Both the position numbers and the translations under genes were made by a program. A model generated the notes under the pieces. It did no database searches. It was not told the DNA's origin and saw only the letters and a program-made list of their open reading frames with translations. A DNA stretch of 64,000 nt. Origin: an archaeon (GTDB lineage Archaea; Nanobdellota; Nanobdellia; SCGC-AAA011-G17; GW2011-AR17). This document shows positions 20,699-22,060 of this stretch, piece by piece. Position 1 is the first letter of the stretch; each line of letters opens with the position of its first letter. The stretch is from contig JABHZQ010000020.1 of assembly GCA_018656555.1 (NCBI GenBank), positions 10,764-74,763 on the forward strand, read 5' to 3'.

Positions 20699-22060
20699 TT
20701 GATGGCAATACTACAAAAGATGAAAGTGAATAAAGAAAGATTGAAAGAACTTGCTAAACAATGTATGGGTTTTGAACCATTTCCATATCAGTTAGATTTT
20801 ATTAGTGATTGCTTTGAACACAAGTATATCTTAGCTTGTTGGAGCCGACAAATTGGTAAATCAACCTGCACTGCCTTGTTCGCCTGTTTGGCTGCTGTCT
20901 TGAATCCAGATATAACTATAATTATAATTTCAAAGTCCGAACGACAATCGAAGGAAATCTACATTAAAGTCTTAGATTTCCTTCACAGAGTCCCTGAATT
21001 CAGAAAGGGACTCAAACAAGAGTCAATGGAACAAACAATCCTTGCAAATAGATCAAGAATATTAAATCTCCCTTGTAGTTTTGAAGGTCAGAGTTTGAGA
21101 GGATATGCAGCTGAAATTTGCATTATTGATGAAGCTCAGTTTATTCCAGACCAAGTAGTAGATGAAGTTATTAGTCCGTTTGTTGCAACTAAGAAGGATT
21201 TTAAATTCATTAAGCTATCAACACCTCAAGGTAAGCAAGGACATTTCTATCGTAGTTTCTTAGATAAAGATTATCACGTTCATAATTATTCTTATGTTGA
21301 AGGAGTTAGAAACGGATTAATAACTCGGGAATTTATTGACAAGAAACGGATGGAGATGGATTCCTTGAGCTTTGCTCAAGAATATGAAGCTTTATTTATA
21401 GAAGAAGCTTCATCCTATTTCGGTTCGGAGCTAATTAATAACAATGTTCAAGATTATCCCCTACTGAGTGAGGTTTCTAATGTTGAGAGTGGTACATTCT
21501 ATGCAGGGTATGATGTTGGAAGATTTGGTATGGATAAAAGTGTTTTAATTGTAGTTCAAAGAAAAAAAGAAGAGAATAGGATTGTTTTCATAGGCTCTAT
21601 TGATAAAGCATCTTTAGATACACAATTAGATTATATCAAACGAATGGATAAACTATTTCATTTCAAGAAGATTGTTCTCGATGAAAGTGCCGTTGGAGGA
21701 GGGTTGACAGATTTCTTAATTAAAGAGTTCAATACATCTTTAATTAAAAAAGTTGAGGGATTAACTTTTACTAATAAATCTAAGAAAGATATTTATTCCA
21801 ATCTTAGAACTCTTTTGGAGAATAGACAGCTAATTCTACCAAGACATCCTGAACTGATAAGTCAACTTAAAGACCTTCAATATGAGTATTCAGATAGTGG
21901 AAACCTGAAGATATTTCATCCTCCAAACAAACATGATGATTATCCAGATGCTCTTGCTTTAGCTGTGAAATATGTTAAAGATAAAGAATCTGCTTGGTTC
22001 TTTGTAAATAATGATAGGTTAGATGAGAGTTATGGTAATGTTGATTATACCAGTTGGTGA
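20699..22060 (+). CDS. terminase large subunit (TerL)
   Basis: FPYQLDF; Walker A SRQIGKST; Walker B ICIIDEAQ; nuclease motifs AGYDVGRFGMDKSV and HDDYPDALALA. Confidence 0.85.
   Translation: MMAILQKMKVNKERLKELAKQCMGFEPFPYQLDFISDCFEHKYILACWSRQIGKSTCTALFACLAAVLNPDITIIIISKSERQSKEIYIKVLDFLHRVPEFRKGLKQESMEQTILANRSRILNLPCSFEGQSLRGYAAEICIIDEAQFIPDQVVDEVISPFVATKKDFKFIKLSTPQGKQGHFYRSFLDKDYHVHNYSYVEGVRNGLITREFIDKKRMEMDSLSFAQEYEALFIEEASSYFGSELINNNVQDYPLLSEVSNVESGTFYAGYDVGRFGMDKSVLIVVQRKKEENRIVFIGSIDKASLDTQLDYIKRMDKLFHFKKIVLDESAVGGGLTDFLIKEFNTSLIKKVEGLTFTNKSKKDIYSNLRTLLENRQLILPRHPELISQLKDLQYEYSDSGNLKIFHPPNKHDDYPDALALAVKYVKDKESAWFFVNNDRLDESYGNVDYTSW

Follow-up and report, generated by a model that had tools for sequence, protein, structure and literature searches.

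Terminase is regarded as absent from non-viral elements, and the one archaeal exception, NitKor-E1, a cryptic integrated element of Ca. Nitrosopumilus koreensis AR1, has been called a relic (Krupovic et al. 2019, PMC6563490). As of 2025, the archaeal satellites described exploit only spindle-shaped viruses (10.1101/2025.02.15.638363), and a 2026 preprint adds a proposed satellite, 3.8 kb in size, whose helper would be an Asgard tailed virus (10.64898/2026.08.12.739948). Here, we analysed a 64-kb stretch of DNA (hereafter the window) for which a first-pass annotation had reported an orphan terminase large subunit (TerL), possibly marking a capsid-hijacking satellite of a tailed archaeal virus. 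Its remark that archaeal TerL genes detached from structural modules are rarely described is roughly right, although NitKor-E1, with a small subunit (TerS) and TerL only, is a precedent (PMC6563490).

The gene in question is the following.
20699-22060, plus strand: TerL, large terminase subunit with ATPase and RNase H-like nuclease (Pfam, PHROG and PDB-structure matches)

Read from a TTG, this ORF encodes 453 aa; the true start is likely the ATG at 20702, yielding the 452-aa NCBI protein. The N-terminal half matches Pfam Terminase_6N (1.2e-11, residues 49-244) and the C-terminal half Terminase_6C (4.7e-5, residues 270-423), while the PHROG search returned phrog_2 "terminase large subunit" (1.3e-47) and ten other TerL-annotated families. 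Among solved structures, a TerL-family profile matches the P74-26 TerL ATPase (4zni, 2.8e-28), T4/RB49 gp17 across both domains (3ezk, 4.1e-26), and the P74-26/G20c nuclease domains (about 1e-18 to 4e-19). In agreement with these matches, all three motifs first noticed in the protein are present: SRQIGKST at residue 49, IIDEAQ at 142, and HDDYPDALALA at 412. Every residue invariant over 13 homologues is kept, both on the ATPase side (R49 Q50 G52 K53, R81 Q82, E144, T174 P175) and among the nuclease acidic residues (D271, D327, D412 D413), and the ATPase motifs RQxGKS(T) at 49-55 and IIDE144 are unchanged across the 13. The protein thus combines an N-terminal ASCE ATPase with a C-terminal RNase H-like nuclease bearing conserved acidic residues, and at the level of sequence it is confirmed as a genuine, intact TerL with complete catalytic residues. 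Because all of these residues are kept and TerL is the best-conserved gene in comparison with a related element (locus L001), it looks functional, with predicted ATPase and nuclease activities.

TerL lies in a discrete mobile element at the 3' end of a tRNA gene. The element is integrative and sharply bounded (12,638 bp, 15815-28452), and its ends are defined by these features.
15678-15814, plus strand: tRNA gene with intron, the integration target; its last 14 nt are attL
15801-15814: attL core TCCCAGCCTCGGCG, an exact 14-bp direct repeat of 28439-28452
28439-28452: attR core TCCCAGCCTCGGCG, the second copy, beside the tyrosine integrase gene
27125-28369, minus strand: tyrosine integrase of 414 aa (Phage_integrase), its gene intact in the integrated element and abutting attR
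attP junction, derived from the att repeats: contains GGTCTAATTCCCAGCCTCGGCGTAATACC
attB junction, derived from the att repeats: contains CGAATCCCAGCCTCGGCGGAATCTT

The tRNA gene matches the Rfam tRNA model over its full length (35.7 bits, E 4e-6, insert of 79 nt). It was missed by ARAGORN with default settings, and ARAGORN -i gives Lys(ttt) with an implausibly long arm; its identity as Lys(ttt) is uncertain. The att repeat is the longest GC-containing repeat bracketing the region, and alignment adds flanking matches. The integrase is supported by Pfam Phage_integrase (4e-17) and a PHROG integrase family (2.7e-25), and is homologous to the integrases of two related loci, L001 and L010. An orthologous tRNA gene in a related genome (L027, 18330-18467) has no element alongside and represents an empty site. 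Cellular genes, encoding an ABC transporter, cyclophilin, MFS transporters, and PheRS, flank the element. In another assembly, a contig (L019) spans the element with about 40-50 bp of flank per side; a circular form was sought in this contig, no terminal overlap was found, and the contig is the integrated form with short flanks. Because the att repeats, the tRNA gene, and the cellular flanks fix the boundaries, no structural module is hidden on the continuation of the window's contig, and the concern that the element had been misjudged in extent is settled. The window's contig carries archaeal LSU and SSU rRNA genes, which place the element in an archaeal genome; the host is a marine Woesearchaeota/Nanoarchaeota-like (DPANN) archaeon.

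Outside the packaging cassette, the element comprises the following genes and sites.
15841-16575, minus strand: basic protein of 244 aa (pI 10.1), divergent from the long plus-strand module
16619-16630: palindrome AGGGTATACCCT in the divergent intergenic region, a candidate operator
16685-16843, plus strand: ribbon-helix-helix-like protein of 52 aa, first gene of the plus-strand module
16925-17185, plus strand: small ORF of 86 aa
17240-17650, plus strand: small ORF of 136 aa
17619-17858, plus strand: Cys/His-rich small ORF of about 79 aa
17855-19588, plus strand: replication protein of 577 aa, a fusion of PrimPol, PriCT_1, and AAA_25 helicase
22097-25231, minus strand: five cargo genes immediately downstream of TerL, encoding a 293-aa exported protein, a 106-aa Excalibur lipoprotein, a 225-aa lipoprotein, a 104-aa superinfection-immunity protein, and a 224-aa DUF4190 membrane protein
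25508-26955, minus strand: two HNH endonuclease genes, of 164 aa (HNH_3) and 302 aa (HNH)

The 244-aa basic protein, a putative regulator, has no match in Pfam, PHROG, or PADLOC. The core of the palindrome also occurs upstream of the integrase gene (28406-28413), and the two occurrences of GGTATACC in the 64 kb both fall in these two regulatory intergenic regions; in the control, 7 of 100 shuffles gave at least two matches anywhere. None of the three small ORFs within 16925-17858 matched a family in Pfam or PHROG. The replication protein has Pfam matches to Prim-Pol (8.6e-15), PriCT_1 (2.7e-15), and AAA_25 (4.3e-28), as well as PHROG matches to DNA primase/polymerase and primase/helicase families. 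The ribbon-helix-helix-like protein reached 24 bits (4.2e-5) against Pfam NikA-like, under the 27-bit cutoff; a conjugative element was considered and rejected, since this sub-threshold match is the lone hint and transfer ATPases are absent.

The genes downstream of TerL had been described as oppositely transcribed and encoding exported proteins. All five cargo genes are indeed on the minus strand, and three have a signal peptide or lipobox at the N-terminus as read from the sequence, whereas the other two encode multi-pass membrane proteins. Their Pfam matches are Excalibur (6e-5), Imm_superinfect (9.8e-15), and DUF4190 (3e-10); the 104-aa protein also matches the PHROG "immunity to superinfection" (2.6e-13), and no cargo gene matches a structural protein in PHROG. 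The HNH genes match Pfam HNH_3 (1e-6) and HNH (2.3e-11) as well as PHROG HNH families. PADLOC found no known defence system on the element; it gave only generic HNH, coiled-coil, and weak AbiEi-type domain matches, the last of these at the C-terminus of the replication protein, and the reading as a known defence system was dropped. The HNH genes, integrase, att sites, and primase-helicase, which define the element, had no place in the first-pass annotation.

As that annotation supposed, TerL is detached from any structural module: no ORF between the att sites encodes a portal, capsid, protease, or tail protein by Pfam and PHROGs. The portal, HK97-fold capsid, and tail genes that stand beside TerL in a complete tailed (Caudoviricetes) provirus are therefore lacking. 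The remaining unknown ORFs are either cytoplasmic and shorter than 250 aa, or encode proteins with membrane segments or with a signal peptide. Roughly one ORF in two falls in no recognised family, and archaeal pleomorphic viruses make their virions from membrane proteins, so one could imagine a complete small virus with unrecognisably divergent virion proteins, in which, for example, the minus-strand exported and membrane proteins form the particle. However, a TerL requires a portal and an HK97-fold capsid, the cytoplasmic ORFs are too short for these (the largest unknowns are the basic 244-aa protein and the 293-aa protein with a signal peptide), the exported proteins of the window element have no conserved counterparts in L001, and we know of no membrane-vesicle virus that uses a terminase. 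We consider a complete virus highly improbable.

Upstream of TerL lie two genes that form a packaging cassette with it, preceded by a repeat array.
19524-19715: iteron-like repeat array of GTAAACTA / AAACTAA, in both orientations
19724-20185, plus strand: "family C" protein of 153 aa, pI 8.7
20151-20612, plus strand: "family A" protein of 153 aa, pI 9.3, with coiled coil and zinc ribbon

The upstream 153-aa basic protein previously named as the nearest candidate partner of TerL exists, but there are two such ORFs. Family C has 138 homologues (E ≤ 0.001) among 1.84 billion representatives, of 91-281 aa and mostly 125-175 aa. Its profile matches the ORF upstream of TerL at five further independent loci (L012, L010/L011, L001/L002, L017/L018, and L008); the last is an IMG/VR virus contig with a portal after TerL, and the family thus precedes TerL both in viruses and in elements. 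The AlphaFold model (pLDDT 89.6) is all-helical, with three short helices, a hairpin, and a long C-terminal helix. We found no TerS match for 60 family members in Pfam and PHROGs, no significant TerS match for the family profile in PDB or for the model by Foldseek against PDB and BFVD, and no match to the TerS and neighbouring proteins of the virus HGTV-1 by hmmsearch and hhalign. Family C thus shares with known TerS its place upstream of TerL but showed no sequence or fold similarity to them in these searches, and is a candidate small terminase subunit solely by position.

Family A has homologues at L001 (8748-9170, 2.3e-14) and L012 (1626-2048, 1.6e-4), is conserved in the packaging cassettes of related elements, and weakly matches the Pfam double zinc ribbon. 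The repeat array lies between the replication gene and the cassette genes. Five of the seven GTAAACTA matches in the 64 kb fall in 19524-19624 (2.9 expected window-wide), and AAACTAA has eight copies in 190 bp of the array, which contains repeats and inverted repeats. L001 has an array of another motif, ATAATCCGG, at the equivalent position (8567-8712), and both complete elements carry their own element-specific array upstream of the packaging cassette. The array may serve as an origin or as a site recognised by the terminase.

The capsid-less layout recurs in two relatives, L001 and L010, whose TerLs are 56-59% identical to that of the window; three loci in all are informative on this point. 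L001, an element of roughly 13.1 kb, is inserted within a phospholipase D gene and has the order family A, B, and C genes, TerL, and then oppositely oriented exported proteins, HNH, and integrase. L010 has a resolvase and an integrase within 2.2 kb after TerL. Between the window and L001, identity is 59% for TerL, 31% for family A, and 25% for the integrase. The three elements differ in integration sites and replication genes. At protein identities of 53-59%, synonymous sites are saturated.

The TerL clusters with viral TerLs and not with non-viral ATPases, the closest cultured virus being the archaeal myovirus HGTV-1 (31.7% identity). The capsid-less TerLs form one clade in a distance-method tree (bootstrap 200/200) on a long stem, and there is therefore no sign of recent helper exchange. 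A portal homologue follows TerL in ten outgroup loci (L003, L006, L007, L008, L015, L016, L021, L022, HGTV-1, and MMP17). A helper contig with a closely related TerL, which the first-pass annotation had proposed to look for, did not emerge: no portal-linked TerL exceeds 38% identity in a collection of 5.8 billion proteins (nearest P0006/L003), and IMG/VR scans gave only distant TerLs at about 31% or less. Two genome-contig scans, one with the single TerL and one with the clade alignment as query, returned no relative; a scan of metagenomes yielded three loci, including one whose TerL is close to that of the window (L012, 55% identity).

That divergent relatives share this layout argues for function and not for decay. 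The terminase genes could be left over from a tailed provirus that lost its structural module, as proviruses often decay, genuine tailed viruses are the nearest outgroups, and NitKor-E1 was interpreted in this way (PMC6563490). Against such a relic, the three elements are cut off at the same point right after TerL, despite TerL identities of only 56-59% to the window and different integration sites and replication genes. Moreover, TerL is of full length, retains all of its catalytic residues, and is better conserved than the other genes of the element, and the integrase and att sites are intact. Decay would not be expected to preserve such features across such divergence, and we regard a relic as quite improbable.

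Conservation of TerL and its intact catalytic residues show selection for an unspecified purpose, and this would also suit an integrative, plasmid-like element in which TerL and its partners serve some purpose other than the encapsidation of the element itself, such as competing for the procapsids of infecting tailed viruses, cutting their concatemers, or processing its own replication products. The element bears another anti-virus function, superinfection immunity, no helper was found in the searches, and its TerL clade has long diverged from viral TerLs. On the other side, the documented job of TerS and TerL is packaging DNA into portal-bearing procapsids, and to our knowledge no other function has been documented for them. 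PADLOC points to no known defence system, and interference is compatible with satellite transfer, the two being combined in bacterial satellites. The terminase is also held to be specific to tailed viruses and herpesviruses (Krupovic et al., PMC6563490). We therefore judge an exapted terminase unlikely.

The reading we prefer, to which we give about an even chance, is that the element is a helper-dependent satellite bringing its own terminase. Having no portal, capsid, protease, or tail gene of its own, it would depend on procapsids made by the helper. While uninduced, it would stay in the chromosome, with the minus-strand cargo (surface and superinfection-immunity proteins) expressed from its own promoters and the divergent 244-aa basic protein holding the long plus-strand operon silent. 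Induction would probably come from a tailed virus that resides in the same cell or infects it; the integrase would then excise the element, and the PrimPol-helicase would replicate it, possibly from the GTAAACTA array. The element's own terminase, TerL with family C as candidate small subunit, would then recognise and cut element DNA, possibly with help from family A and the HNH nucleases, and pump it into the portal-bearing procapsids of the helper.

The satellite proposal made at the outset thus gains from the capsid-less layout in two divergent relatives, but no helper virus was identified in the protein collection or IMG/VR, which counts against it. So do the usual specificity of TerL-portal docking, the long stem of the capsid-less clade, the lack of a family or structure link between family C and TerS, the integrated and not circular form of contig L019, and the recurrence on three loci only; we also know of no described satellite that carries TerL without its own portal and capsid. 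Tentatively, and at somewhat under an even chance, these elements may represent the first satellite family of tailed archaeal viruses, with its own complete terminase (TerL plus a new small-subunit family) and nothing from a helper but its portal-bearing procapsids and tails. If true, this would be a strategy unseen in bacterial satellites, and, as DPANN hosts are themselves symbionts, would add an extra layer of nested parasitism. A recurrent, well-conserved terminase-only integrative element challenges both the supposed absence of terminase from non-viral elements and the relic view, and offers a concrete, testable candidate for parasitism of tailed-virus capsids in archaea. Family C, a new family of small proteins, is a candidate for the small terminase subunit in tailed viruses of archaea. 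For virus-mining pipelines, a lone TerL match should not count as a provirus.

Compared with known systems, the element resembles classical PICIs and SaPIs in its size of about 10-15 kb, its integrase and bounding att sites, its order of integrase, putative regulator, primase-helicase, and candidate packaging-specificity gene, its accessory cargo, and its absence of structural genes (PMC10085698). Like PICI-type islands, it has its own replication module; its putative packaging module would consist of TerL and, by position only, family C. Classical PICIs and SaPIs differ in being bacterial and in carrying no TerL, using their own TerS or Rpp to redirect that of the helper. The capsid-forming PICIs (cf-PICIs) and MulchRoom and MiniFlayer of Streptomyces are satellites with their own TerL and TerS and often an HNH nuclease, and cf-PICIs and MulchRoom carry an integrase (PMC10085698, PMC10690885). 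The cf-PICIs also share a primase-replicase module, while the Streptomyces satellites are reported to have lost replication machinery. All of these are bacterial, and in contrast to the present archaeal element, they encode capsid protein, portal, and head-tail adaptors themselves and rely on the helper for tails alone (PMC10085698, PMC10690885). The cf-PICIs further encode a head-maturation protease and the Streptomyces satellites a scaffolding protein instead; the present element has neither, and no capsid protein, portal, or head-tail connectors were detected in it.

Among archaeal systems, pSSVx/pSSVi, SRCEs, and the putative Asgard satellite NMV2S are likewise proposed to hijack helper virions, and some of these satellites have a packaging-type ATPase and no capsid gene (10.1101/2025.02.15.638363). 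However, the helpers of pSSVx, pSSVi, and SRCEs are spindle-shaped viruses, and the ATPase of these elements is of the AAA+ type and no terminase. NMV2S shares the tailed-virus link (10.64898/2026.08.12.739948) but is a 3.8-kb circle with no terminase among its annotated ORFs. Tailed proviruses and viruses of DPANN and other archaea (for example the Diapherotrites provirus L016 and HGTV-1) have homologous TerLs (31-38% identity) and an upstream ORF that overlaps or abuts the TerL start, whereas in them portal, capsid, and further head genes follow TerL. The closest precedent is NitKor-E1, which, compared by gene content, is likewise an archaeal integrated element with a tyrosine integrase and with TerS and TerL as its sole tailed-virus genes (PMC6563490); in the present element, too, the terminase genes are the only tailed-virus genes, beside an integrase. 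NitKor-E1 is one isolated case from a thaumarchaeon, carries a toxin-antitoxin pair plus a restriction nuclease as its cargo, and has been regarded as probably a relic (PMC6563490), whereas the present layout occurs in at least three divergent DPANN-type elements whose TerL is monophyletic and well conserved.

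The ORF at 20699-22060 (plus strand) was confirmed as a large terminase subunit (TerL), as the first-pass annotation had proposed from three motifs, which we located at residues 49, 142, and 412. It matches Pfam Terminase_6N (1.2e-11) and Terminase_6C (4.7e-5) as well as phrog_2 "terminase large subunit" (1.3e-47), and alignment with 12 homologs revealed that all invariant ATPase and nuclease residues are present (R49, Q50, G52, K53, R81, Q82, E144, T174, P175, D271, D327, D412, and D413). Among solved structures, the family profile matched the ATPase domain of P74-26 TerL (2.8e-28), T4/RB49 gp17 with both domains covered, and the nuclease domains of P74-26/G20c. 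The nearest TerL of a cultured virus is that of the archaeal myovirus HGTV-1 (31.7% identity, E 6e-55).

The final 14 nt of an intron-containing tRNA, TCCCAGCCTCGGCG, are repeated exactly at 28439-28452, with partial matches flanking both sides. Because this tRNA-end repeat recurs beside an integrase gene, the mobile unit is 15815-28452 (12,638 bp), with the following features in it and at its left border:

15678-15814, plus strand: intron-containing tRNA (Rfam; missed by default ARAGORN)
Divergent, transcribed away from the main module: 244-aa basic protein, pI 10.1
16685-22060, plus strand: main module, with an RHH-like protein (52 aa), small ORFs without known function, a replication protein (PrimPol-PriCT-AAA_25), and the three genes below
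19724-20185, plus strand: family C protein, 153 aa
20151-20612, plus strand: family A protein, 153 aa, coiled coil and zinc ribbon
20699-22060, plus strand: TerL
Convergent cargo, minus strand: 293-aa exported protein, two lipoproteins, a T4 Imm-type superinfection-immunity protein (9.8e-15), and a DUF4190 membrane protein
Same convergent block, minus strand: two HNH endonucleases and the integrase
27125-28369, minus strand: this tyrosine integrase, 414 aa, adjoining the right-hand TCCCAGCCTCGGCG copy

The neighboring genes are cellular, with an ABC transporter to the left and cyclophilin, MFS transporters, and PheRS to the right of the element, whose GC content of 0.320 equals that of the flanks (0.316-0.322). 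The related genome L027 (841-kb contig, PheRS 79% identical) has the orthologous tRNA without an element beside it; the neighbors of this tRNA are the same MacB-type permease gene on one side and other cellular genes. Contig L019 (ENA assembly ERZ4200978; 12,731 bp) is 99.99% identical to window positions 15764-28494 and so extends about 40-50 bp beyond each att core of the element; two more similar places were counted among contigs of 10-20 kb. L019 does not form a circle, and its ending at both junctions suggests assembly-graph branching between cells with and without the element, a hint rather than proof.

Several observations concern the surroundings of the site. The tRNA carries an insert of ~79 nt, which ARAGORN -i reads instead as a 43-nt intron and a long arm; its anticodon assignment is tentative. 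In the gap separating the tRNA from the MacB permease gene, 14543-15652 (plus strand) contains a 125-aa ORF and a LAGLIDADG_3 endonuclease-like ORF that is free-standing (2.7e-9); since this gap is only about 80 bp in L027, they represent another insertion adjoining the tRNA. A full bacterial-type sigma-70 factor (regions 1.2, 2, 3, and 4; Sigma70_r2 3.8e-22) is encoded at 29063-29956 (plus strand), 0.6 kb past the right-hand copy of TCCCAGCCTCGGCG (attR). An assembly chimera is excluded, because the identical protein occurs on 11 contigs, the longest of 308 kb, and three MAGs contain it as well. The sigma-70, cyclophilin, and one MFS gene (together 28453-31148) are absent at the syntenic place of L027. 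At 6000-15000 and 56000-59000, GC skew reaches a very strong +0.5 and tracks the transcribed strand; its sign reverses where the cargo of the element is encoded on the minus strand.

The LSU and SSU rRNA genes fit archaeal Rfam models, so the contig is archaeal, and the best named relatives of the PheRS alpha subunit are in Woesearchaeota and Nanoarchaeota MAGs (~60-63% identity); on these grounds we treat the host as a DPANN archaeon. Three NCBI MAGs labelled only "archaeon" carry the same element.

No ORF of the element matched portal, capsid, protease, scaffold, or tail families in Pfam or PHROGs, and its unassigned cytoplasmic ORFs are all too short for a portal or HK97-fold capsid protein. 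That the element is a complete virus, whose virion proteins would have gone unrecognized, is very improbable, and for a virion that uses the terminase it is essentially excluded. In a side observation, the C-terminal half of the HNH_3 protein (25508-26002, minus strand) is unusual: it comprises a hydrophobic segment, a linker rich in Pro and Thr, and an end rich in Cys that weakly matches scorpion-toxin and defensin families (0.003-0.005).

In a search of a 5.8-billion-protein collection, the close TerLs were four, P0002 to P0005, with 54-61% identity across the aligned part; the next match drops to 38%. The four full-length TerLs of this group form one clade in a neighbor-joining tree (200/200 bootstraps). 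P0002 lies on L001, an archaeal contig of 99 kb that encodes FtsZ and ribosomal proteins, in an element of ~13.1 kb that has a 10-bp repeat and interrupts a phospholipase D gene exactly at the HKD motif. This element starts with regulator-side genes and a replication-like protein; families A, B, and C and TerL come next, and then exported beta-helix and Ig/propeller proteins, HNH_3, NUMOD3, LemA, and an integrase. The L001 repeats are at 5882-5891 and 18972-18981, with the insertion point at …NLHH | HHKVFIID…, and what is left of the phospholipase D gene is an ORF truncated to 284 aa and a C-terminal piece of 60 aa. In locus L010 (P0004), a resolvase and an integrase lie within 2.2 kb after family C and TerL; L012 (55% identity) has families A, B, and C and then TerL. 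None of these three loci has a portal, and proteins of no known family in L001 and L010 gave no PHROGs match to structural proteins. By comparison, a portal homolog lies 3' of TerL on the same strand in loci L003, L006, L007, L008, L015, L016, L021, and L022, in HGTV-1, and in Meiothermus phage MMP17; L017 and L018 were left out, as their sequence after TerL is too short. L016, a Diapherotrites provirus, has an SU10-type capsid match besides the portal. Between the window element and L001, identity is 59% for TerL, 31% for family A, and 25% for the integrase, which makes TerL the most constrained gene of the element. A provirus relic, stripped of its structural genes, is improbable, and is weakened by this conservation and by the layout common to the relatives.

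The family C profile matches the ORF directly upstream of TerL in five further independent loci, including virus contig L008 with the order C, TerL, portal. In a set of 1.84 billion representative proteins, 138 are homologs at E ≤ 0.001; they range from 91 to 281 aa, with most at 125-175 aa. The AlphaFold model is confident (pLDDT 89.6) and all-helical, with three short helices at the N-terminus, a helical hairpin, and a long helix at the C-terminus, a topology compatible with known small terminases (TerS). Because neither sequence nor fold searches gave a TerS link, only its position makes family C a TerS candidate.

Between the replication gene and family C lies an array of the 8-mer GTAAACTA, of which five of the seven copies in the 64 kb are inside 19524-19624, and degenerate copies in both orientations reach 19715. 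L001 has an analogous array of another motif, ATAATCCGG, with direct and inverted copies at the same relative position; both arrays may serve either as replication iterons or as sites that the terminase recognizes. The window contains only two copies of the palindrome core GGTATACC, at 16621 in the divergent regulatory gap and at 28406 upstream of the integrase gene, and this core is a candidate operator common to both sites. Four minus-strand cargo genes share a conserved 38-nt sequence (68-84% identical) that begins at their start codon (23388-23425, 24132-24169, 25229-25266, and 25464-25501); read on the minus strand, it has the TATA-like box AAACCTTATAAAATCC at about 25-30 nt upstream of the ATG, and it looks like a common promoter for independent cargo expression.

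To our knowledge, terminases are documented in a single role, cutting viral DNA and pumping it into a procapsid that bears a portal. The element has an intact, strongly conserved TerL, a conserved cassette upstream of it, and its own replication protein and integration machinery, without a capsid gene, and relatives with TerLs of only 56-59% identity to the window TerL keep this capsid-less layout. For these reasons the most economical explanation, to which we give about an even chance, is a helper-dependent satellite that brings its own terminase. In this reading, encapsidation is a predicted step. The capsid-hijacking satellite envisaged in the first-pass annotation is partly supported: the TerL is genuine and structural genes are missing. 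Against the satellite reading, no helper virus was found, the searched collections gave no close viral TerL, and a TerL without its own portal occurs in no known satellite (PMC10085698, PMC10690885). It is unlikely, though less so than a relic, that the terminase was exapted, possibly for an antiviral role; PADLOC found no known defence systems in the element.

Among described systems, NitKor-E1, an integrated element of Nitrosopumilus koreensis, has TerS and TerL as its only tailed-virus genes; terminase had not previously been seen in non-viral elements, and NitKor-E1 was suggested to be a relic (Krupovic et al., 2019; PMC6563490). The only archaeal satellites known before were pSSVx and pSSVi, to which plasmid-derived satellites of spindle-shaped viruses were added (Zhou et al., 2025; 10.1101/2025.02.15.638363). 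A 2026 preprint proposed a 3.8-kb satellite of a tailed Asgard virus, with no terminase among the annotated ORFs (10.64898/2026.08.12.739948). The TerL-bearing bacterial satellites, cf-PICI, MulchRoom, and MiniFlayer, also encode capsid and portal (PMC10085698, PMC10690885). The window element is PICI-like in architecture and carries a full terminase instead of the small subunit alone. In contrast to NitKor-E1, it is not a lone case but a recurring type, and its hosts are DPANN archaea; a PICI-like layout with a full terminase, recurring in DPANN archaea, is what it adds to the literature.
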